A DNA stretch of 64,000 nt from Eledone cirrhosa (lineage: Eukaryota): positions 88,226,001 to 88,290,000 of the forward strand of contig OZ024746.1 in assembly GCA_964016885.1 (NCBI GenBank), in the 5' to 3' direction. This document shows, piece after piece, positions 11,620 through 62,541 of the stretch. Position 1 is the stretch's first letter; each line of letters opens with the position of its first letter. Both the position numbers and the translations under genes were made by a program. The notes under the pieces were generated by a model that made no database searches, was not told where the DNA came from, and worked only from the letters and a program-made list of their open reading frames with translations.

Positions 11620-12118
11620 CTTAAAATAAAAAGAATAAAAACTATTTGGATGGTCGTTGACTCTGCTGAGTTCCTACACCCTTTGCGGGGTCTTGTATTT
11701 CATCCTGCAGGGTGTCCAAATATTACCCTCCTCACCAAACAAGCTTGGTGGTGGGGTTGGCGGTTTAATCACCGACCACCCGATCATGAGACAGGTTTTG
11801 CTGGGTTACATGTTACCAGTAGCACTCGACTCGAGATTGACCTGACATATGTATATATATATATATATACATACACACACACACACACAAACACACATAT
11901 TTATATATATATATATATATATTAGAAAATGATGTTTTTTTTACGAAATGAAAAAAAAATGAGATGTCCTACACTAGTGAAATATAAGGAAAAAAGATGA
12001 AATCTCAATTTTGAAAAGCACAAGAAGTGCGAAACCGGTAAAAGGGCCAAATAAATACTTTATAAAAGTCTCCAGTTGCATTTCGATTTCATCTTTATTC
12101 CCTATATATATATATGTA

Positions 12119-13570
12119 TATATTTATTAAAATAACAGATTAAAGTGTAAGCAAAGAATTGTTGCTTTCACCCTTAACGGGATCTTCTGAAATTAAAAAA
12201 GTAAATCTGTGAACGCAGAAGTAAATATTTCAAAAATCGTTGCAGCCGGAGGAGACAGGAAGACGATAATTTGGTTCGTTGAAACGTTCCCTGGCAAAAG
12301 ACGGGGAAGACGAAGATAATACGTCATTATTTGGAGCGGTGAAAAACAATTACACGCAAAGACAAAGCCACGTTTATGGTATAAAAGAAGTCGTAGACTA
12401 ATATTATATTAGGTGGTTCATGGAGCCGTTCTCTGGCAATGAACGCAAACAACGAAGATAATACGTCATATGTGGAGCGTGGAGAACAATTGCACGCAAA
12501 GACAAAACCACGTAAATGGTATAACTCAAGTCGTAGACTAAAATTCTAACTAGGAAACCGAATGATTCTCGACTTCAGAGTTAACAATAAAGTACATAAA
12601 ATACAGAGGTAATTGAAATTAAATAAATACATACACACAACCATATACGTACATACATAAGCATACGCGAAAACACTCGCCATAGGTATACAAATAGAAG
12701 CACGTACACACAAAAAAAACGCACGCACATACAGAACGTACGCGACGCCTGTACCCGCACACATACGAATGTATACACCAAATACACATGAAAATATATA
12801 TATAAAAAAAAAATATATATATATATATGCGCGTGTGTGTGCGTGTATACAAATAATTAAATAAAATTATATAAATAAATAAATACGTATATAACGCGCG
12901 CACAAACATACCTACATGTAAATACACATATGTTCGGAGACGTACGTCAACCAAAACACAAAGCACACATAACACACACCCTACATACGTACGAACCCAC
13001 ATACTCACACAGACGCAAAACTCGCGTATACACATAACCAAATGCATATGTACCAGAATATATAATATATACGCCATAACATATACGTGGTTTTGTCTTT
13101 GCGTGAAATTGTTCTCCCCCGCTCCACATATGACGTATTATCTTCGTTTTTCTTGTCCATTGCCAGATAACGTCTCCATGAATCACCTAAGAGAATATTA
13201 GTCTACGACTTCTTTTATACCATAAACGTGGTTTTGTCTTTGCGTGTAATTGTTTTTCACCGCTCCATTAATAACATATTACCTTCGTTTTTTCCCGTTC
13301 TTTGCCAGGGAACGTTTCCGCGAACCAAAGTATCGTCTTCCTCTCTTCCTCCGGTTGGAACGTTTTTTGAAATATTTACTTCTGCGTTCACATATTGACT
13401 CTTTTAGTTTTAGAAGATCCCGTTAAGGGTGAAAGCCGCGATTATTTGCTTAAAATTTAATCTGTTATTTTAATAAATATTTGCTCTACGGTTCTTATAT
13501 ATTTGATATATATATTTATTCTTACCGAGCCCTTTTGGATGTTTAGTCCTCAAATTTATTATTATTACTA
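12119..13570. mobile_element. Fold-back made of Poseidon-type PLE 3' UTR/pLTR sequence
   Basis: Diverged ~400-bp inverted arms (12119-12530 vs 13085-13481). 12119-13080 aligns with 45533-46390, the 3' UTR of the PLE at 45533-47600. Flanked by TA. Confidence 0.8.
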
Positions 13571-13589
13571 TATATATATATATATATAT

Positions 13590-16247
13590 TGTTATACTTT
13601 GGGAGGGTCATGTTGCCAATAAGAAACACACGCACCAGTGATTTCACTTTAATTTATTATAATAAATTTATAAATTTATAAATTTCTGGTTGGTTGGTTG
13701 GTTGGTTCCACAACCAGATAGTTGTTTATATATAGTCATAGTTCTTTCGTCACGCACTATGTGACCTCTTCAGTGACTGGGGATTCCTTTCTTTGTTTCT
13801 GTGCCTCTCCTTCGTTCTGTCCTATGCCATTTTGTTTCTGTGTGTCTGTTGTGTGCTCAGTCTGCGCATGCGCCACATCCGGGTGTTTGTGTGTGTTTAT
13901 GTTCATTTATTTATTTGTTTATTTACATGTTACTGGTTGTTTCTTTGTTCTATGTGTGTGTGTGTTTTCATTTTGTCCTTAATTGTAAGTTGTGATGTTG
14001 CTGTTCCACTCATATTTTTTATTTAATTTTGGTTGTAATTCTTTTATGTGTATTGCCTCTGTAATTTGTCTTAACATTGCGTCTTTTCTGTGTGTAGATT
14101 CTATTTTTATTTCTATGTTCTCTAATTTACCCTTGTGTTCTATTTTAGCATGTTGGTAGAGTACAGATGATTCTTTACTATCTTGAAGGTCTCGCCAGTG
14201 TTCATTTATCCGTTCCCCTACACTACGAGCTGTCTCACTTTTGTACACTATATTTTTGTCTCTACATTGTCCTTCAGTACATATTATGCTATACACTACA
14301 TTTCTAGTTTTACAGTTAATATGGGGGCTTATTTTACAGGTTATACATTTCTTATCTATACATGAGGGTCTTTGGAAAGGGTATGTCTTGCTAATAATGT
14401 TTTTACGGAGGTACCTGGTCTTTCTACTATCTTAATATTGAGTTTATGTTTATTTAGGGCCCTTCTAAATTTGTAAGCTAATTCACCTCTAGGGGTTGTA
14501 TCGATGAACATTACACTCTGGTATTTATTGCTATCATACCATGAGTTTATTCTATTAGCTTTGTTCCTAGTTCTTTCTATTATATTCCAAAATTTGCTCC
14601 TATACAAGTGGCAGGTCCCATTTATGTCATTATTTACCATTTTTCCCATTTAGTTCTGGCTCCTCTATACACTCTGATTGTATCTCTCTGATTGTAGCCG
14701 GAGAACTGCATACGGTGGATGAAGTGTTGTATGTGTCTCTCTAGTTCTTCGGGGTTGCACATGCGGGGCACGTTTCTCATCTCCCGTACCAAATCCGCAA
14801 TCAGTATGTTGATTTTGGTATGGTCCGAAACGGCCGAGTTTCGGTGGATCAGATGTTTGGAAGTCATGGGTTTGGCATAATGGGAATGGAGGATTTGTGT
14901 TTTGTTATTAATGGTATCTAACCAGAGCTCTGTGTCTAGTACAGGTAATCGATGGTTGGGGTGTTTACTTGGGTAGTCTATAGTAACTCTAATGCTCTGG
15001 TGGATGGAGTTAGCTATTTGCTGGATGCTTTCCATTGTGTTTTTCTCTAGTTCCTGACTGTTCTCTAGTGGGGGTGTCTTAACTACGATGTTTATATCAT
15101 CAACGTAGCGGGAGTACATTATCAGGGTTAAGGGGTCTTCTAATTGTTCTTTAAGTTTAATTTTAAGTCTACTGTTCCACCATACCATGAATAAGTTAGC
15201 TATGTCGCCTGCAATGCTAACACCAGTGGCTGCTCCTTCCTCTTGGGCATATGTTTTTCCATTAAATTTGAACATATGTTCCTTGAGGGTTAGTTTTATG
15301 CTGGCCCCTACCGCATGTGCAATCATTTTCTTCAGTTCATCGTGGTTTTCGGGTGTCCGTATGGCTCTGGTCCACCCGTTCCATCTATCTGTGTGGGTTT
15401 TCTTGGCCATTGAGGTAATGGTAGGTGGTCTGCCTCTTTCTGGTCTTGTAGGGCACAGGTTGCTAAGGTCATATGTGTCTAGGTAATTATTACTATAGGT
15501 AAATTTAAGTAGGAGTCCCAGCTCACTGGTATCAATCCAAAGGAACTCAATATTGCTCTCACTGATCATTTCTACGCATTTCTCCACAGTAAAATCCACG
15601 TCAAGAGATGGATACAGGGACACAACATCCATACTACCTATTATGGAGTTTGTTAGGTCCCTAGATCGGTTACTCACGCCGATTCTGCTGAGGAAGTCCT
15701 CCGTGCTGTCACATACATCTGGGGACATTTCAATGATGGGGCGTATGATCAGGGAGAGGAAGTAGGACAGTCTGTAGTTACTAGCAATGTTAGCTCCACA
15801 GACCGGCCGCGTTGGTGGTCCCGCGACAGGGTCACTGCCCGTTTTATGGTCTTTTCGAAGCCCATACAACGCCGGCACGTCATTGTTCCAGGCCTGGAAG
15901 TTGTTGGCAGTCCTTTTGTTGGGCTGCATGTGGGCATTGTGGGCGTTTTCACTATCCTCATGCTCCTGTGGTGTTACCTCTCTTGTGTTAGTGATGTGGG
16001 GTTGCATTGCCTGGATGTAGTTTGGCAGGCTGTCAACCGACATTCTGCCAGACTTGTCTGTTGGAAAGCATGCTATCTTTCGATTACGCGAGCGCTGCAT
16101 GAGCTTGCGCAAGCCATTTGCAGATGTTTCTTCCAGTTGCTGGGCCTCCATTCTATTATGCTTCTTGCTATACTGTTCTATAATATTTCTAAGTTCGGAT
16201 CTAGATATTCTAAATTGTGCTTCTGTTTGTTCATCGACCTGCGACGT

Positions 16248-16250
<3 letters not shown>
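13590..16250 (-). mobile_element. Penelope-like retroelement (RT + GIY-YIG, tentatively Naiad-like), 5'-truncated and frameshifted
   Basis: ORF 14634-16151 has TDKSG, GSMDVVSLYPS, YSRYVDD and LPVLDTELW. After two frameshifts come CIDKKCITC..C and the GIY-YIG ORF 13979-14296 (VVYSIIC..ETARSVGERINEH..LN). The pLTR holds a hammerhead. Both ends lie in (TA)n. Confidence 0.95.
13734..13778 (-). ncRNA. Minimal type I hammerhead ribozyme in PLE pLTR
   Basis: Minus strand: AGTCA CTGAAGA G GTCAC ATAGTGC GTGAC GAAA GAAC TA TGACT. Confidence 0.9.
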
Positions 16251-24949: not shown

Positions 24950-25005
24950 ACTGCTATATATATTTCGATGATAGCCATTAAGTGGCTATGACCTCATCAG
25001 GCAGT
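24950..25005 (-). ncRNA. Type I hammerhead ribozyme with intact core
   Basis: Minus strand: ACTGC CTGATGA GGTC ATAGCCA CTTAA TGGCTAT CATC GAAA TATATA TA GCAGT. Sits in a ~320-bp segment (24903-25222) bounded by TA. Confidence 0.9.
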
Positions 25006-37718: not shown

Positions 37719-37921
37719 ATTGTATACGTACATACATATATGTATACATACGTACAGTAGTATGAATATATATATACATACATGCACACATATATCTATG
37801 TAAGTATCGATTTACCGAACATTTATTATAATGCTCGGTTTGTTTGTAAACAAACATCCCGAATTAAGCTGTACAGTGTTTAGCTACCATCGTTGCCCTT
37901 TTGTTCAACACTGACAAAGGA

Positions 37922-37964
37922 ACGATGTACTAGTTTCAAGCTTATTAGCTATCGTCAGCACCGT
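37922..37964 (-). ncRNA. Minimal type I hammerhead ribozyme (F1)
   Basis: ACGGTG CTGACGA TAGCTAATAAGCTT GAAA CTAG TA CATCGT on the minus strand. Confidence 0.88.
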
Positions 37965-38094
37965 ATACCTTCCTACCAGATGATTGAACGTCTGAAAGTA
38001 TATACTTTCTTCACGCTTATTAGGTTGCTCAGCCGTTAATATGCATCAGGAAGGTATATACTTTCAGACGTTCAATCATCTGGCAGGAAAGTAT

Positions 38095-38137
38095 ACGGTG
38101 CTGACGATAGCTAATAAGCTTGAAACTAGTACATCGT
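38095..38137 (+). ncRNA. Minimal type I hammerhead ribozyme (F1)
   Basis: Identical motif on the plus strand. Confidence 0.88.
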
Positions 38138-38382
38138 TCCTATGCACACACACATATATATATATATGTGTGTGTGCATGTATGTATATATATACGTACT
38201 ACTGTACGTATGTATACATATATGTATGTACGTATACATACTTATATATAAGCAACAGCCGTACTAAGAGTGAGAAATGAAATTTCGTTTCTTTTTTCCA
38301 TATATATATATATATATACAGAAAGAGAGAGAGGGGGGAGAGAGAGAGGCAGAGAGACACAGAGAGCGAGAGAGAGAGAGAG

Positions 38383-41638: not shown

Positions 41639-41673
<35 letters not shown>

Positions 41674-42063
41674 TTGCGAGGTTTTTTATATGAAATCGTG
41701 TGTCGAAACAGATATTGTTATATTTGGGGAGGGTCATATTTGCGTAATATTGCCAGAATTAATAACAGAACACACTCACTGTTTGGTTGGTTTTCGCTTC
41801 TCGCTGTCTTTTATATATATATATCTGCGATCTAACTTACTCGGTCCTCAATGTTGCCATTGACTGACCGGCGGTCAAAAATAATACAGATACAATATAG
41901 ACAAACACATATATATATAGTTTACATAAATCTTTCGTTGCACATCTGCAACATCGTCAGTGGTGTTATATTCATTGTTCCTCCTGTTGTGTTGTATGTC
42001 TACGCCATTTTTTTTTTTTGTTCAGTCTGTCTATATATTTATTTATTTATTTGCTTATTTATT

Positions 42064-44983
42064 CACAAAAATACGTTGGAATGCAAAGGTAAACAACAAC
42101 AACAATAATAACGGTAGTAGTAATATAAACAATAACTCTGGGTATAGAAATAACAGCCATAACCATAACAATGGCAGGAAAGTGAGAAATAGTGATAATG
42201 GTAATAATACTAGCGATAGACAGAACAACAACAACCACAATAATAATAATAATAGAAACGTTAACCACAGACACAGCAACAGTGACCACAGTAGTAATAA
42301 CGGTAACAATACGAACAACAACAACAACAATAACCACAGTGGTAATAATGGAAATAGTACATGTAGCAACATCAACAAAAACAAGAAACATAATAATAGT
42401 AACAACCACAATGGTAGAAATAGCAGTAACAACAACAACAATAACGGTGAAGTAAACAACAATACATCTAGCAATCATAACAATAATAATATTAATGCTA
42501 AGGATAGAAACAACAACAACCACCATGATAACAATAATAGCAACACACACAACTATGACGATAGAAATAACGACAACCCCTTAGAGAAACTATTTTTCAA
42601 CCCAGCTGACAAAACATATAAGATGGGTAATATCTATCCTACGAGGTTACCCTTTAATAAAAGAGTTTGCATACCACAACAAATAGATGACGAGACGGAG
42701 GCACAGTTCACCATAGCTAGAAATAAGATTAGACAAGTAGTAGACAGGTACACTATGAGACAGAGCAGACCAGAGGCCCAACAACTTGGGATAAAACCTG
42801 TAGAAGGCTTGGTTAGCCTCAAGCAGCGCACAAGGGATGGTGAGGTAGTGTGTCTACCCACAGATAAGTCTGGTAGGATGTCAATAGATAGCATGCCGAA
42901 CTACATCGAGGCAATGCAACCCCACATCACCAACACGAGCGAAGTTGCACAACTAACACACGATGGGAGAGAAAAAATCCTCAACGCTCACATGATGATG
43001 TGGACTGACATCCTAAAGCCAAGCAGACGCACTGCCAACAACTTCCAGGCGTCTAACAATGGCATACCACCCTTGTATGGGCTCCGCAAAGACCACAAGA
43101 CTGTCGACGACCCGACAATAGGACCACCAACAAGACCTGTATGCGGAGCTAATATAGCTAGCAACTACAGGATCTCCTACTTCCTCTCAATGGTTATACG
43201 CCCCATAATCAAGATGTCCCCAGATGTATGTGAAAGTACAGAGGACCTCCTCAGCAGAATCAGTGAGTGCAACAAAAACAGGAGCCTATCCAACTGCATA
43301 ATAGGCAGCATGGATGTGGTGTCACTGTACCCATCCATTAACATTGATTTTGCTGTGAAAAGATGTGTGGAGATGATCATTGAGAGTGAGGTGGAGTTCT
43401 GCGACGTCGACACAGACGAACTGGGCCTCCTACTTAGACTTACCTACGACACTGACTACCTAGACAGCCATGACCTTAGATGTTTCTGCCCTAGTAGACC
43501 TATAAGAGGTAGACCCCCCACCATAACCTCAATGGCTAAAAAGACTCCCATAGGAAGGTGGATTGGGTGGACCAAAGCTATACGGACCCCCCAAAACACT
43601 GATCAGGTAAGAAAAATGGTCGCACATGCAATAGGGGCTAGTATCAAAACTACCCTAAAGGGCCACATATTTAAGTTCAATGAGAAAGTCTACACCCAAA
43701 ATGAGGGAGCAGCCATCGGCGTCAGCATAGCTGGCGATGTTGCCAACCTTTTCATGGTATGGTGGGAAAGGAGACTTAAAGATCTCCTTAATGAAAGCTC
43801 CATAGACCTCATCATGTACTCTCGTTATGTAGACGATATCAATATAGTTATAAGAACACCCCCACTAGAGAGCACTAACAAGTTTGATTTAGAACGTAGC
43901 ACGATGGAAAGCATCCAGCAGATAGCTAATTCCATACACCAGAGTATAACTGTAACTATAGACTTCCCTTCCAAACACCCTAACAATAGACTACCTGTAT
44001 TAGACACAGAACTCTGGATCAACACTATAGACGAGAGAGCCCAAATTCTCCACTCACACTATGCTAAACCCATGGCCTCCAAATACCTGATACTCAAAAA
44101 CTCAGCAATGTCCAGTAGTGCTAAGTTTAATATTCTGATCGCAGATTTGGTACGAGTGATGAAGAATGTGTCCAGCATGTGCGACCCAACAGAAATGGAA
44201 GGACACATCCAACACTTCATCAACCGCATGCAGTTCTCTGGCTACAACCAAAGAGACAGAGTCAGAGTATACGAAGGAGCCATGGAAAAGTATAAGACCC
44301 TCATAGAACTGGACATGAAAGGAATTTGCCCACTATACAGGAGCAAATCATGGAATAGCTTAGATAGGGCTAGACATAAGATAGGGAAGGCCACATCATG
44401 GTACGACAACCAGAGATATCAGAGTGTCATGTTTGTGGACGCCACCCCTGGAGGGAAATTAGCTAACCAGTGTAGAAAGGCCCTGAGAAAGACCCACTTA
44501 AAAATAAAGGTGGTAGAAAAGCCAGGAACCACCATAAAATCCCTGATCAGCAAAACCTACCCTTTTAAGAAAACCCACTGTACCAATAGGTAATGTATCA
44601 TATGTAAGGTGAACCCCCGGATAAACTGTAAAACTAGAAACGTAGTCTATAGCATAAGATGTACAGAGGGTACTTGCAGAAACACGACAACAACATACAT
44701 AGGTGAGACAGCTCGTAGCATAGGTGAAAGGATAGACCAACACTGGGGGGAACTAAAAGGACGAAAAAACGGGTCAGTACTATACGAACATGCTAGACAA
44801 CATCATGACGGTAACATAGACAACATAGAAATTAGAATAATATCTAAACATAGGAATGACCCAGCAGATAGGCAAATCAGAGAGGCCAGTGAAATAGAAA
44901 TTAGAAGACCAAAGCTAAACAGAAAGAATGAGTGGAACAACAACAACACCCAAACAAACAACACTGACCTAAGAGAAGTATAA
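42064..44983 (+). CDS. PLE polyprotein: Asn-rich region, RT, Cys linker and GIY-YIG; 5'-truncated, one in-frame TAA at 44591
   Basis: TDKSG, GSMDVVSLYPSI, GAAIGVSIAGDVANLFM, YSRYVDD, CTNR*CIIC..C, VVYSIRC..YIGETARSIGERIDQH..REA..LN. ORFs 41960-44593 and 44609-44983 are in the same frame. Confidence 0.93.
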
Positions 44984-45253
44984 ATAAATAAGTAAATTGA
45001 ATTAAATAAAATAAGATAAATAAATACATACACAAGCACATAAACACACACTAGTCACCCAGCAGACACAACACTATACACACTAGTCACACATCACACA
45101 TAACACTATACACACACGCAAACGCATGCGCAAAGAAGACAAAATAAAATAAGATAAACAAACAAGCAAATAAATAAATAAATATATAGACAGACTGAAC
45201 AAAAAAAAAAAATGGCGTAGACATACAACACAACAGGAGGAACAATGAATATA

Positions 45254-45296
45254 ACACCACTGACGATGTTGCAGATGTGCAACGAAAGATTTATGT
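45254..45296 (+). ncRNA. Hammerhead motif in pLTR with weak stem I (mirror copy at 41924-41966 on the minus strand)
   Basis: ACACCA CTGACGA T GTTGCA GATG TGCAAC GAAA GATT TA TGT. Core and stem II are perfect; stem I has only 2 contiguous pairs. Confidence 0.65.
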
Positions 45297-45532
45297 AAAC
45301 TATATATATATGTGTTTGTCTATATTGTATCTGTATTATTTTTGACCACCGGTCAGTCAATGGCAACATTGAGGACCGAGTAAGTTAGATCGCAGATATA
45401 TATATATAAAAGACAGCGAGAAGCGAAAACCAACCAAACAGTGAGTGTGTTCTGTTATTAATTCTGGCAATATTACGCAAATATGACCCTCCCCAAATAT
45501 AACTATATATATATATATATATATATAAATTA

Positions 45533-47600
45533 ATTATTAAAATAACAGATTAAAGTTTAAGCAAAGAATCGCTGCTTTCACCCTTAACGGGATCTTCTGA
45601 ATCTAAACAAGTTAATCGGTGAACGCAGAAGCAAATATTTCAAAAGACGTTGCAACAGGAGGAAGACAGGAAGACGATACTTTGCTTCGTGGAAACGTTC
45701 CCTGGCAATGAAAGGAAAAAGAACGAAGATAATACGTAATTATTTGGAGCAGTGAATTGGCAGTATCGGTAGAGGGTCGGACGCCATGCTTTTCTAGCAT
45801 AGTTACGTCCCTTTACAGTCTGAGTTCAAATCCCGCCGAGGTTAACTTTGCCTTTCATCCTTACGGGGTCGATAAAATAAAGTACCAGTAATGCACTGCG
45901 TAATTGCTGGCCTTGTGCCTAAAGTAGAAACAATTATTTGGAGCGATGAAAATAATTACACGCAATGACAAAACCACGTTTGTGGTATAAATGAAGTCGT
46001 AGATTAATATTCTATTAGGTGGTTCAAGGAGACGTTCTCTGGCAATCAACGGAAAAAACGCAAAGACAAAACCACGTAAATGCTATAACCGAAGTCGTAG
46101 ACTAAAATTCTAAGTTGGAAACCGAATTCAGAGTTAAGAACAAAGTAAATAAAATACAGAGGTAATTGAAATTAAATAAATACATACACGCATCCATATA
46201 GTACATACATAAGCAGACGCGAAACACACGTCATAGGTATGTCCGCAGGCGTACGCCGACCAAAACACAAAGTACACATATACACACACCCTACATACGT
46301 ACCAACCCGCGTACTCGCACAGACGCAAAACGCGCGTATACACATAACCAAACGCACATGTACCAGAATATATATTATATACACCGTAACATATACAGGC
46401 AAATATGCGTTCGAGAAAGTATACGTACCTTCACAAAACATACATGTAATATATACTTACCTATACAAATAAATAAGGTATAAACATAACATATACTTAG
46501 CTAACACATCAAGACGTAAAATATCCGCGTATAGTTCGTACTATACGTTAGGGTATAATGTGGGGCTGAAATACAGAAAGGTTTTGTGCAATTTATGTTT
46601 ACAAGCCGAAATTACCTCAGATTCTTTGTTTAAGATGTGGTCTTTGACGTAAGGTATTTCCAGGGCCTCATCAGCGCAGAGGTCACATGGTATTTTATTT
46701 CCGTTATACGATCTATCCCTAGCTAGGATCTCCCAGTGTTATTTATAGTGTGTGTGGTTGTCTTTTAGACTCCAGATATCAGCTGAAAGGGTTCAGAAAA
46801 GAATGGGTATGCATGTAAAGACGCTGCTTGGATCTATTGGCGGTTAACACTATGTAGGCCCTACGGGACGTGGGTGTTTCAAGCAACATTTGTAGACAAT
46901 ATTACTAGAGAAGCATTTCCCGCATAGGGGGCAGTAAACCCGATTCCTACAATTACAGTTATTACTAGCTACAGGATTGCACGTGTTCCTACGGCTAGAT
47001 AGTTTAGCTATATTTGAAGCTGTGATGTTACGTGCAAGGTTAGGAGTCGTAGAGTAAGACATTTTAATGCTATTTCTATTAAGCATTTTACTATATTTAA
47101 ATGCTTCATAATAAAGGAGAGAAAGATCTTAGCTAATGGTGTGGTCACCTCCATATTATATGGTGGGTTATACCATTAAATGCGTAGGGATTTATTTTTC
47201 ATAGGTCTATTCTCGTACTCTGTATATGCTACCTTATCGACGAATCCACACCGAGCAAGAGCTTCATTGTAATATCTGGAATGGTCGTTGAAATCATATT
47301 CGTTAGTAGATAGACGGAAAAATCATCAAATAAACGTTTCTTACCAGGTTCTTGGTTATGCTGGCAGGATGGTTGAGAATGCTTACTTATATAATTAAGC
47401 GTATCATTCGGCTTTCTATACGGATAGGGCAAGCTATTCGACAAATTGAGGGTAACGTCGAGGTAATTACCGACCGAGAGGTTGGCCTGAACCTGTATGG
47501 AGAGGTTGCCTTAAAGAAGCTGTGAGTTCTTTTCTGAACCTGTCGCAAGCACGTGGGCCGCACTTTGTCGTAGTAACTGTAAGATATTGACAGAGTTGTA
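45533..47600 (-). mobile_element. Decayed Penelope/Poseidon-type PLE (RT end, GIY-YIG and ~1-kb 3' UTR)
   Basis: PYRKPNDTLNYISKHS, IKMSYSTTPNL..CNCRNRVYCPLCGKCFSSNIVYKC and CDLC..E..LNK.SE.ISACKHK. A degenerate hammerhead-like motif (CAGAAGA TCCCGTTAAGGGT GAAA) lies near 45580. Confidence 0.85.
45751..45931 (+). mobile_element. tRNA-derived SINE (MetaSINE/MESC-like core) with 13-bp TSD, nested in a PLE UTR
   Basis: A box TGGCAGTATCGG, B box GAGTTCAAATCC, core gcctttcatccttacggggtcgataaaataaagtaccag. TSD aattatttggagc at 45738-45750 and 45932-45944. Confidence 0.9.
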
Positions 47601-49757: not shown

Positions 49758-49802
<45 letters not shown>

Positions 49803-49809
<7 letters not shown>

Positions 49810-50586
49810 TATGTACACGTACATACATATATGTATACCGACGTACAGTAGTATGTATATATATATATATACATACATGCACACATATATATATGCACGT
49901 ATGGATTCACCGAACATTTATTATAATGCTCGGTGTGTTTATAAACAAACATCCCGTATTAAGCCGTAGTGTCTAGCATTTATTATAATAAATATTCGGT
50001 GAATCCATACGTGCATATATATATATGTGCATGTATGTATATATATATATATACATACTACTGTACGTCGGTATACATATATGTATGTACGTGTACATAC
50101 TTATATTTAAGTAACAGCCGTACTAAGAGTGGGAAATGAAATATCGTTTCATTTTTTCCGTTTATCGTTTTCGGTGCACCCGTCCGATTAACCCACTCGA
50201 TATGCAAATTGGGCTACTCAGCCGTTAATATGCATAAGGTAAGTATATACGTTCAACAATCTGGCAGGAAGGTATACGTTGCTGACGATAGCTAACAAGC
50301 TTGAAACTAGTACAGCGTTCCTTTGTCAGTGTTGAACAAACGAGCAACGGTGGTTGCTAGACACTACGGCTTAATACGGGATGTTTGTTTACAAACACAC
50401 CGAGCATTATAATAAATGTTCGGTGAATCCATACGTGCATATATATATGTGTGCATGTATGTATATATATATATACATGCTACTGTACGTCGGTATACAT
50501 ATATGTATGTACGTGTACATACTTATATTTAAGTAACAGCCGTACTAAGTGTGGGAAATGAAATATCGTTTCATTTTTTCCGTTTA
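49803..50586 (+). mobile_element. Family F1 element: 1.4 tandem ~424-bp units plus inverted 5' arm
   Basis: 49983-50165 repeats at 50407-50586; 49805-49978 is inverted; hammerhead at 50276; TA flanks. Confidence 0.9.
50276..50318 (+). ncRNA. Minimal type I hammerhead ribozyme (F1 variant)
   Basis: ACGTTG CTGACGA TAGCTAACAAGCTT GAAA CTAG TA CAGCGT. Stem I shows a G-U to U-G swap relative to the other copies. Confidence 0.88.
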
Positions 50587-54773: not shown

Positions 54774-55230
54774 TGTATAATACATTAGTCATGGCAATAG
54801 ATATTATGTATGCCTACCTTTTTTATGTGAATATGTAATATAATAAACTAATATATAAATAATGTACTGCATATATATATTCATTGAAGTATTAAATAAA
54901 CAGGAAGCAAATTGTGTATTAAATCCTTTCATACAGATTCATTTTTTAATGGCTTTAAGCATGAATTACTTCATGCATACAAGTTACATATGGAATTGTA
55001 GACTACATAACTGTTATAGTTAATATAGGAAATATTAGTATTTTATGGAATTATTCTCAATACATTACGTAACGTGCAGCATCACAGTAACATAAATGCA
55101 TTCTAGCTTTTTAATGCTTTCTTTCCTATCACCGTGAATTATTTGAACGACTGAATATAAGTGTGTTTAGAGTTACAGTAACAAAATATATGGTAGACAT
55201 ATCTGAATGCACAGATATATATATATATAT

Positions 55231-55820
55231 GAGAAATTAGAAATTATAAGCTTTCACCGTATTTTAGACTAAAGAAATGTCTAGCCTGATAGTGGGGTTT
55301 ATAACCCTCGGAGAAATGGAAAAAGATGATAACCAAAGATGTGGGTTCGACTCCCATGTACGGCAACACTCATCTTTTTCCATTTCTCCGAGGGTTATAA
55401 ACCTCACTACCAAGCTAGAAATTTCTTTAGTCTAAAATGCGGTGAAAGCTTATAATTTCTAATTTCTAATTTTCAAACTCGCGTACCGTTTCAAAAACAT
55501 AATTACATGTTTACATTTATAATTTGCTTGCTTATCATTCACTTGCTAAGTTCAAAGCTTCTAATTCGAATGGAAGGAGACGGGATGTGTATTGGTGTAA
55601 TGGTACCACATTGGTCTGGATAACCAAAGATGTGGGTTCGACTCCCATGTACGGCAACACTCATCTTTTTCCATTTCTCCGAGGGTTATAAACCCCACTA
55701 TCAGGCTAGAAATTTCTTTAGTCTAAAATACGGTGAAAGCTTATAATTTCTAATTTCTAATTTTCAAATTCGCGTACCGTTTCAAAAACATACTTACATG
55801 TTTACATTTTTAATTTGCTT
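55231..55820 (+). mobile_element. Tandem 291-bp-unit element containing a tRNA-like cassette, with inverted 5' arm
   Basis: 55330-55530 repeats at 55621-55820; 55233-55329 is an inverted copy; TA flanks. Confidence 0.85.
55584..55656 (+). pseudogene. tRNA-like sequence (D, anticodon and T arms paired; acceptor stem degraded)
   Basis: TGGT-GTAATGGT-ACCA, TTGGT-CTGGATA-ACCAA, GTGGG-TTCGACT-CCCAT. Confidence 0.7.
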
Positions 55821-56064
55821 GTATATATATATACATATATATATATGTGTGAGTGTATATAAATATATATATATATATATACATATGTGTGTATCTGTGC
55901 ATATATATATATATATATTGAGAAGAGTTACACAAAATTCGATGAGTATATCAAAGAATGAGTGTTACAGTAAATTGTAAGCACTCTACGGAGAAATAAT
56001 TTTCCGGGGTTATTAATATTACAATATAAATATTAATAAAATAGATGTTCTTTCGATCAATTAC

Positions 56065-56117
56065 ATTTTATTATACATATTTCGGATGTAAAACAGTACG
56101 TCCTCAGCAGACAAAAT
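56065..56117 (-). ncRNA. Degenerate hammerhead (core A6 mutated to C)
   Basis: Minus strand ATTTTGT CTGCTGA GGACGTA CTGTTT TACATCC GAAA TATGTA TA ATAAAAT. Confidence 0.6.
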
Positions 56118-56170
56118 ATAGTGATACATGACATACCCTGAGATGTTAAATGGTTAAGATTTGTTGAGAT

Positions 56171-56670
56171 GTTTGTGTTCATTTTTCTATTTTTCTATTT
56201 ATATTTTATATTTTTATATTTGTTTATTTAAATATAAATATAAATAGAAAATATAAATAGAAAAATAGAAAAATGAACACAAACACACACAGACACCCGG
56301 ATGTGGCGCATGTGCAAACTGAGCACACAACACACACACAGAAACAAAATGGCGTAGGATAGAAGAAAGGAAAGGCACAGAAACGAAGAAAGGAATCCCC
56401 AGTCACTGAAGAGGTCACAGAGTGTGTGACGAAAGGACTATGACTATATATATAAACAACTATCTGGTTGTGGAACCAACCAACCAACCAGAAATTTATA
56501 AGTTTGTAAATATGTAAATTTGTAAATTTATGAATATATAATAAATTGAAGTGAAAGCAACTGGTGCGTGTGTTTATTATTGGCAACATGACCCTCCCAA
56601 AGTATAACAATATCGGTTTCAACACACGATTTCAGATAAAGAATCTTGCTAAACAAATTCAGAAACGAAA
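56171..56670 (+). mobile_element. Solo pLTR of the 13590-16250 PLE subfamily with small 5' inversion and ORF-start tail
   Basis: 56272-56610 aligns with the reverse complement of 13590-13905. Palindrome 56171-56284. The tail encodes [28 protein letters not shown]. Confidence 0.9.
56401..56445 (+). ncRNA. Minimal type I hammerhead ribozyme in solo pLTR
   Basis: AGTCA CTGAAGA G GTCACA GAGTG TGTGAC GAAA GGAC TA TGACT. Confidence 0.9.
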
Positions 56671-56751
<81 letters not shown>

Positions 56752-59606: not shown

Positions 59607-61576
59607 CTGGAACACACACATGCATACATGATATATATAAAGAAGATCGATAGGAAGATGAACGTTATTATACATCTCGTCCTTATATGTATTCATATTG
59701 ATATACGTATATACGTTTATGATTTCATTTATGCCATTTTTATTGTTCGTTTATATGAAATTGGTTTTACTTTCTATTACAAGAATGACTAAAGACTGAA
59801 GCCGGAAGAAATATATATCATATAAAAAGGATGACCTCATTTCTTTCAAGGAAAATACATACATCACTATGACAACTATTTCTATGTGAAGAAATATAAA
59901 ACGAAATACAATATTCTTATTGTAGAAAAGAAAGAAAATTAATTTGACTAGATTCAAAGTTCAGTTTTTTAATGACGTTGTATAGATGAAAAGGTCATGA
60001 AACATTGGTTCTATTATTGAAACTGCATATTCTAAGAAGGACAATATAATGCGTCAAATCCGATTCTCTATTTTAAGTGAGAAGAATGAAATTGTTGAAG
60101 ATCTGGTATATCTATATCATATCTATTTCTATAACATACACAAAAATAAGGTAGTATCTATAATAATTTGAAATAATTATTTCTCGTATATCACCCATTC
60201 ACCTATGATTGTCATTTTTTTATGTTGTTTAGATTTATGTCCGAGCCAGGCGTATATCTCGTGTATCTACTTATATTATAACCAAATTATCCCTCCATTT
60301 CCAAATGAAGTTGTATATGATTTATGCCATTTTCTAGACTTTGAGGAGCCACGTAGGAGGTCTCTCATCGCCTAGAATATATATGGGTTCATGCCATTAT
60401 ATTACATATTTATATGTGCGTCACGGTTATCATTATGTTAAAGATATACATCTCTACTCTAACGGCTTGGTCTTATAATCGGTTTCCGAATGTTGCGTCA
60501 CATCTAAAATATTGATTATATAGAAGTAAAAACTGTAAACCATAGATGTGTGTTAGAGACTATTGCCAGGCACTAGCTCAGTAACAAAGTGAGGTGAAAA
60601 TAACTATGAAGCCTTTTTCTCGGAAATATCTATGACGACATTTCAAGGAAAATAATTATCGAGCATTTTCTCGGTATTTGCTATGAAGCCTTTTTCTTGG
60701 AAAGATGAGAAATGTAGGGTGGACAGAATACTCGACACGGAGTCATGCACATCATATTTTATGCAATCCAAAATTAGTGGATAACAAATAAATACATATT
60801 CTACATTGTGGTGATTTTAAACCACCGAAACGAGACAAAGAATTCACTGAGGATACTAATAAATTGCATTAAATCGTGTAAGCGTTATATTCCCAGGTAT
60901 CAATATTTCTCGTAAAAAATCCATAGCAGAAAAACTGATTGTGTTAAAATATATAATTAAAATATTTCTAACTTTTCGTACATACGTAAATTATATGCAA
61001 GAGAGGTTTTGGTGCTACACACTTCTTTCCGTCAAATACTAACCGAACAGGGATAACATACTTCATTTTGAAGTATGTATGTAGGATTACCAGTGGCTAT
61101 TAGGATTTTCTTCAAAATCAGTGAGAAAGAGATCGGTTATGAATAAAGCCTTTAGCATTTGTAACATTTCTATTCCGATTTAATTTCATATTAATACCTG
61201 TTAATATTTATGAACTTTGCTATAATCAGAAGCAGCCCACAAGAAGAAATCATTTTGCAAATGCATTCTCTATTATATATAGAGGAAGATATATATCATA
61301 ATAATCAATTGTATAACAATGTTCATATGTTACATGTAAATTAACAGTGACCTTATCTTAAATATTCTGTATAAATATGGCCGTCAAAACAATATAGTTC
61401 TTCCGTTATTATTATGGAGATTATAAGGGGTCTTTATTAAATAAAAGAAAGCATTTTAATGACTTTTAAATTTAAATACATGTCATATATTCCACAGCGT
61501 AATTGATATTTCATTATATTGATAGTCTCTAAAATTATGTTTATTTATAAATGTGTAAATGCTGGGTATAAAGTCT

Positions 61577-61867
61577 ATGTACAAGTATAGCAATTTCGGT
61601 GCAATTCCGTGAGAGATTCTAAGAGGAGATGTGTGCCAAAAATCGATAGACAGACAGACAACCACAGTTTTATATATATAGATTATGTTGAATATAATTT
61701 CAATCCTATATGTTTTCATTGCAAATGAAAACATATAGGATTGAAATTATATTCAACATAATCTATATATATAAAACTGTGGTTGTCTGTCTGTCTATCG
61801 ATTTTTGGCACACATCTCCTCTTAGAATCTCTCACGGAATTGCACCGAAATTGCTATACTTGTACAT
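61577..61867. repeat. Perfect palindrome, 144-bp arms with 3-nt loop
   Basis: 61577-61720 is the reverse complement of 61724-61867; loop gca. Confidence 0.95.
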
Positions 61868-62541
61868 TGAGCCCTAGCGAAGACATCGGAAAAAAATAAT
61901 TTCAAATTGACCCACCCTATGTGACGAAATCGAATATAATGTATCGATTTTTGAGCGTAAGTTATCAGTTATTTCCCTTTGTTCTGTTTACATTGAGCGT
62001 CTTACGTAAAAAATTACGCTGGCTTTCTCAGCGTTTAAAATGACATTAACACAATACACGAACAGATCAGTTCGAACACTAAGCTTCCGTTTTGCTTCAT
62101 TTCCATTTAAAAGCATTTTAAAACAATATTTTTACTTGAAAACAAGTCTATTTAAAGACTACGTAAAACAAGCAAATATTTCAGGCGTGCAGACAGACAG
62201 TCGTGCAGAGAGGTGATATAGGCGTGCAGACAGACATAACTGATAATTTGATTACGCTAATGTTTTTCTCTGCGTTGCAGTGTTTACATTTTCGATCTTT
62301 GTTAATAAATAACCAGTGCAGTTTTTATCCCCAGCATCCTCTTTTGTTATAACATTCGGGTTATCGTTATGTTTTCTTAACTTCATAAGGCATATTGTTG
62401 GTTGAGGGAATATTAATCAAAAACACCACATGCAAGTCTGCACAGTAGATACTACAGTTTTTAAGCCAAAAAAGAAACTTAACATTGTAACTTTAACACA
62501 GCTACTGAGCGACCCCGAGCAACGCCGGGCTTTACTGCTAG
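61762..62541 (+). mobile_element. Non-autonomous Helitron
   Basis: A|TCTATATATATAAAA 5' end, (GTCT)n near the start, subterminal hairpin CCCGAGCAACGCCGGG, and 3' CTAG|T. Confidence 0.85.

Follow-up and report, generated by a model that had tools for sequence, protein, structure and literature searches.

Penelope-like elements (PLEs) that bear an endonuclease are known to end in a tail that is the start of their own ORF, and this feature has been published. In Pen2a_Av, an endonuclease-bearing PLE of Adineta vaga, the pLTR is followed by a tail comprising the first 22 codons (PMC3846280). The protein of Poseidon_Ac from Anolis cleaves both strands and extends them, beginning 111-118 nt within the ORF with no homology to the target, and the genomic ends of Poseidon coincide with the start sites used in vitro (Frangieh et al. 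2024; PMC11167929). Partial tandems, inverted arms, tails of 30-40 bp and a (TA)n bias were described in PLEs by Craig et al. 2021 (PMC8557442), and circular templates were proposed by Cervera and de la Pena 2014 (PMC4209133).

The window, i.e. the whole 64-kb stretch of DNA that was analysed, contains three insertions of two related PLE families: a young copy, an older copy and a solo 3' end. Relative to Pen2a_Av, the short tails comprise 7-8 codons and the long ones 22-28, the extension being 41-46 nt or more; an Asn-rich insert precedes the RT, and the (TA)n target masks any duplication. As in Poseidon_Ac, the 3' ends probably lie inside the ORF start, two neighbouring end points occur, the target is AT-rich, the pLTR contains a hammerhead core and the protein is predicted from a relative to have long N-terminal helices. 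Initiation in Poseidon_Ac lies near +111 to +118, whereas the ends here, as read from sequence alone, lie at +21/+26, +67 and about +85. The hammerhead of Poseidon_Ac overlaps the start codon; here it lies 162-223 nt upstream. The window provides a clean genomic example of a PLE tail that is likely the ORF start, with a test of selection, in a lineage distant from that used for the in vitro work.

Insertions in the window

The features were as follows.

13586-16250, minus strand: older copy
13586-13611, minus strand: older copy, short tail of 24-26 nt holding 8 codons, with ATAT common to the tail and the (TA)n target
13612-13978, minus strand: 3' UTR/pLTR of the older copy, hammerhead core at 13745-13773
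13979-16250, minus strand: ORF of the older copy, 5'-truncated and broken; over 749 codons its amino acids are 64% identical to those of the young copy
41671-45508: young copy, with inverted left arm
41671-41737, minus strand: young copy, long tail of 67 nt with 22 codons, forming the outer end of the inverted left arm
41738-42063, minus strand: inverted left arm (pLTR) of the young copy, hammerhead core at 41933-41960
42062-44983, plus strand: PLE ORF of the young copy, 5'-truncated, from FTKIRW
44984-45482, plus strand: 3' UTR/pLTR of the young copy, hammerhead core at 45260-45287
45483-45508, plus strand: young copy, short tail (ATG plus 7 codons) followed by (TA)n; end at +21 (45503), or at +26 with one mismatch
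56170-56285: palindrome of 116 bp, 89.7%, a true local fold-back where the solo copy is truncated at its 5' end
56248-56672: solo 3' end, subfamily O/S
56248-56587, plus strand: solo copy, 3' UTR/pLTR with 87% identity to 13586-13931 and a hammerhead core at 56406-56434
56588-56672, plus strand: solo copy, long tail (ATG plus 28 codons) running into (TA)n

The direct or inverted pLTRs, the 5' truncation and the one-sided tail are those of an EN+ PLE. In the young copy the long tail adjoins (AT)14.5 at 41642-41670, and the left and right arms differ at one position in 340 nt (within 41717-42056), the inner junction of the left arm lying somewhere in 42057-42063. Its ORF comprises, in order, the Asn-rich insert (about 42092-42574), DKSG, the RT (YVDD) and, at the C terminus, a GIY-YIG nuclease with a CX4CxxC linker. 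The in-frame stop at 44591-44593 is private to this copy; contigs of three sequencing runs have another base there. The Asn-rich insert (42092-42574) is in frame directly after KIRW, at which place the Octopus vulgaris protein P0002 (69% identity) has a different low-complexity stretch. The 5' end of the older copy adjoins (TA)n without an inverted arm. The end of the solo tail lies at +83 to +85, its exact place being blurred by the (TA)n repeat. One repeat family, at 13076-13519 and 45510-45756 (also 12103-12343), adjoins both ORF-bearing copies across their 3' (TA)n; this common neighbour may reflect chance, a shared target context or co-mobilisation.

A hammerhead core was present in the pLTR in 4 of 4 copies, 162-223 nt before the ATG, with a predicted stem II of 5-6 pairs. 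The window contains six such cores, against 0.25 expected. An Rfam search of the window reported no hammerhead, its sole match being tRNA-like (55589-55653). The sixth core, with a long stem, lies outside these elements at 24963-25000 on the minus strand.

Reading frame and homology of the tails

The original prediction was that the two subfamilies have largely dissimilar pLTRs and end in the same ATG-initiated frame. Both statements were borne out: the pLTRs are dissimilar between subfamilies (179/292 aligned positions, tail included), and the four tails hold 28, 22, 8 and 7 codons of one frame before (TA)n. Over the 22 codons common to the long tails there are six synonymous changes (codons 4, 5 and 18-21) and three replacements (G10C, N12D and Q16H), again as predicted. 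The selection check that had been proposed for the tails gave pN 0.058 and pS 0.43 (22 codons; Fisher p=0.0019), compared with pN 0.207 and pS 0.61 for the ORF bodies of the young and older copies (749 codons). A pN as low as that of the tail was found in only 13 of 728 22-codon windows of the ORF body. Of the six frames, that of the tail changes the fewest residues (3, vs 4-9 in the others), and the 21-nt start motif occurs four times in the window against 0.01 expected, a count reached by 0 of 100 shuffles. Synonymous divergence of the tail was lower than that of the body, but not significantly so (p=0.13). The tail frame is shared between the subfamilies and is under purifying selection. 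Such selection would act on the tail codons in intact source copies, where the identical letters would be the translated start; the tails in the window would be dead copies that are not translated into the ORF.

The six closest full-length relatives were used to place the tail in the protein. In five of them the xLRW motif begins at residue 229-231, the sixth being missed by the pattern, and 30 of the 64 scorable proteins among 120 aligned have 215-250 residues before the W. The young copy begins at FTKIRW and so lacks about 225-230 residues, of which the tails account for 22-28. A profile of the six N-termini, built without any sequence from the window, put the two long tails in first and second place among 2686 segments of the window, with E-values (0.2 and 0.69) that are not significant alone; the six relatives had been chosen after their likeness to the tails was noticed. 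When Met-anchored scores were added up over seven N-termini, 0 of 2000 shuffles equalled either long tail; in single comparisons of a tail with an N-terminus 0 to 843 of 2000 shuffles were as good. With a broad profile of 30 full-length N-termini, mostly distant, neither long tail was among the top 14.

Searches for the tail itself were as follows. The tail peptide gave two candidates, none scored, against proteins of 71-2000 aa, and two weak matches, both unrelated repeat proteins, against 1.84 billion representative proteins. The N-terminal profile and the tails together, run against proteins of 413-2000 aa, gave seven matches, all previously known relatives and none holding the continuation of the tail. 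A 27-nt tail pattern had 0 matches in metagenome contigs, and 20 pattern matches in viral contigs included 0 relatives. No RNA run was among those listed by the search of sequencing runs. The tail motif was absent from the supplements of PMC8557442 and PMC13282606 in the parts available. Among contigs aligned on the young copy, one record has 319 unaligned letters upstream of 42067; in this alignment the tail end lay within a repeat that was skipped.

Related metagenome contigs contain the ORF start in its wider context. Relatives are encoded by 9 of 115 pattern matches; four of these nine have terminal repeats that connect the 5' end with the 3' UTR, and three of the four (L002, L003 and L006) carry start codons of the ORF within the repeat. 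Terminal repeats of assembled contigs may come from tandem arrays, circles or collapsed copies. In L002, whose RT is 49.5% identical, the hammerhead is followed by ATG MVKTKLPCFGLSFNTR.., letters that are repeated at the contig start and lead in frame to FTKLRWK; MVKTKLPCFGLSFNTRDKITHLSNSI begins 73 nt after the hammerhead and is in frame for 233 codons to FTKLRWK, after which there is an in-frame stop. From the corresponding ATG of L006 the ORF runs without a break. The order pLTR, hammerhead, ATG, ORF is thus present in related contigs. L001, a distant relative (46% identity), has at 2575-2600 an ATG plus 8 codons (MVLATINY) and then (TA)n; this end falls at the same codon position as the short ends in the window and is blurred into (TA)n in the same way.

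The tails had been described as the missing N-terminus of the ORF. They are likely its start, judging from homology, selection and relatives rather than from a continuation in the host, and they comprise just the first 22-28 of about 230 residues. A direct junction of tail and KIRW was ruled out, since about 230 residues precede xRW in relatives and the tail makes up about a tenth of these. Tails of this kind would reveal the true start codon for families known from truncated copies alone.

Lineage of the element

Residues 175-843 of the young copy, used as a query, gave 322 relatives, the best among the 120 listed being Octopus vulgaris P0002 (69%), which suggests that the host is probably an octopus. 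The RVT_1 match was below the curated cut-off (E 0.00019), and a PDB sequence search gave two weak RT matches. The structure model of a full-length relative, P0019 (pLDDT 93), has long N-terminal helices, and its top five PDB matches were telomerases; by the RVT_1 match and this model the element has a telomerase-related RT, as expected of an EN+ PLE. The C-terminal GIY-YIG nuclease in the same ORF was recognised by motif (VVYSIRC...YIGET..R..H, vs the Fig. S2 rows of PMC8557442); Pfam gave no match for the nuclease piece.

RT motifs A and B are 133 aa apart (window 43307-43708; P0001 residues 416-549), and the spacing was 131-140 aa in 110 of 111 scorable proteins among 123. Hand counts from Fig. 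S1 of PMC8557442 gave about 62 for Neptune, 86 for Naiad, 107 for Chlamys and 120 for human TERT, and relative to the Neptune and Penelope rows there are about 70 extra residues between the motifs here. The comparison with these hand counts points to a telomerase-sized insert between motifs A and B in a PLE lineage with a C-terminal nuclease.

Assignment to a described clade was examined against the same paper, which was the only one recovered by a literature search on these clades. By eye, the element resembles Neptune/Nematis in its C-terminal GIY-YIG, its CX2-5CxxC linker and its internal cysteines and histidines (CCHH); the short linker is like that of the Nematis rows, and (TA)n targets also occur in Neptune/Nematis. 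Those clades are described as having no insertion in the fingers, whereas the spacing here is 131-140 aa against about 62 (hand count). With the Hydra clade it shares the C-terminal nuclease, the RW motif, the hammerhead and (TA)n insertion (PMC8557442). That clade is described as having DKT, a CxCX5C linker, no CCHH, no insertion in the fingers and a length of <3 kb (PMC8557442), whereas this element has DKSG, CX4CxxC, a long insert (133-aa A-B spacing) and an ORF of >3 kb and is placed outside it. Naiad and Chlamys, defined by an N-terminal nuclease and no canonical hammerhead, were also rejected. We tentatively consider, as a possibility rather than an expectation, that the element belongs to an undescribed marine PLE lineage (C-terminal nuclease, helical N-terminus of 230 residues, telomerase-sized A-B insert) whose first 85 ORF nt are dual-coded, serving as protein start and as a conserved signal for the start of RT; the short end at codon 7-8 would then be retained across hosts in which protein similarity is only 46%. 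If the lineage is unnamed, the telomerase-sized insert bears on the relationship between PLE and telomerase RTs.

Proposed template, priming and two-ended insertion

The tails are likely the first 7-28 codons of the element's own ORF, i.e. the known Penelope tail, and probably arise from an RT that starts inside the ORF. The template RNA would comprise a pLTR followed by the start of the next ORF, and reverse transcription beginning inside that ORF would leave the tail at the 3' end. A tandem or circular template had been proposed; a pLTR followed by the ORF start is found in relatives and in published elements, and tandem and circular forms would look alike in these data. The GIY-YIG nuclease would nick (TA)n on both strands. 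For the young copy, one 3'-OH may have primed at +21/+26, with 3.44 kb copied back to FTKIRW, and the other at +67, with about 390 nt copied; the two cDNA ends, each truncated independently, would have been joined head to head. The end points +21/+26, +67 and about +85 are predictions of RT start sites.

In the young copy the sequence mirrored by the left arm is not adjacent to it but lies 3.1 kb away, and both arms share three alleles that are minor in sequencing run X1. Contigs of X1 contain joints in which tail-bearing left arms of 67-126 nt meet, head to head, bodies truncated at 43943-45054; there were three such joints among the 15 of 62 shown and one more in a separate table, with one contig each. 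The summed depth of the X1 contigs, which is not a copy number, goes from 590,299 near the 3' end to 1,624-43,061 in the 5' part. The layout and the X1 joints fit the proposal that the two arms came from separate primings; priming twice, at fixed sites in the ORF start, would be the simplest reading, and trimming of a longer intermediate a less probable one. The left arm is indeed longer than the right, by 41-46 nt rather than by exactly 46, since the end near 45503 is at +21 or +26. The copies had also been said to stop at TATAAC before (TA)n; this is so at 45503 if the end is +21, whereas at 13590 the match runs 3-5 nt further (to 13586-13588).

A single priming, in which the tail is again the ORF start but a longer cDNA or double-stranded intermediate was copied or folded and one end trimmed by nuclease, is in our view unlikely. 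It has precedent, in that Craig et al. attribute the tail to nuclease resolution of an intermediate (PMC8557442) and Arkhipova et al. favour self-priming (PMC3846280), and it is consistent with the real fold-back palindrome in the solo copy (56170-56285) and with the arms of the young copy differing at only 1 of 340 nt. The young left arm, however, mirrors not its neighbour but sequence 3.1 kb off; left-arm and body truncation points vary independently in X1, and in vitro the Poseidon protein uses two internal sites to cleave and extend both strands (PMC11167929). The length difference between the arms does not decide the matter: it had been taken to rule out a DNA fold-back, but arm length alone leaves resolution of a longer intermediate possible. 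In L1-type twin priming a single RNA is used, and the inverted part starts where the direct part stops. Its classic form would give the head-to-head layout and near-identical arms seen here, but +67 of the left arm and the inner end of the body are separated by about 610 nt of ORF, as estimated from relatives, and in X1 this gap is at least 2.5 kb while the arm keeps its tail, which makes it very improbable.

Separate primings inside the ORF, the reading we prefer, need not depend on pairing between a (TA)n primer and ATAT in the RNA, and we regard such dependence as doubtful. The original prediction of TA microhomology is compatible with the two short ends, where ATAT at +23 to +26 keeps the register of the target, but microhomology is not evident at +67, where the paralogous continuation in the other subfamily is unlike (TA)n. 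The L001 end is equally blurred into (TA)n. On the other hand, the base beside the junction at 45503 is mismatched, agreement in register has a 1-in-2 chance, and Poseidon initiates without target homology (PMC11167929). Conservation of the tail chiefly for an RNA signal, a bulged hairpin spanning +25 to +43, with the reading frame incidental, is the least probable of these alternatives. Such a signal would account for the identity of 57 of 66 tail nt between subfamilies, a level reached by 1 of 728 body windows, and for the lack of synonymous change in codons 6-17. The hairpin is weak (-1.7 and -0.5 kcal/mol) and no better than in shuffles (z +1.17 and +0.50), and the run of nine identical codons, which was picked out post hoc, has counterparts in 13 of 437 body windows. 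Changes in the tail are mostly synonymous, and the peptide resembles the N-termini of relatives.

Two further observations were made near the solo copy and elsewhere in the window. A segment of another family at 55918-56170 (minus strand) stands head to head with the solo copy and ends in (TA)n; it has a hammerhead-like core at 56080-56107, and the pair is possibly a two-family composite insertion. Long palindromic repeats, of up to 297 bp at 98%, are present at 61574-61870, 55229-55821, 37915-38144 and 49800-50109.
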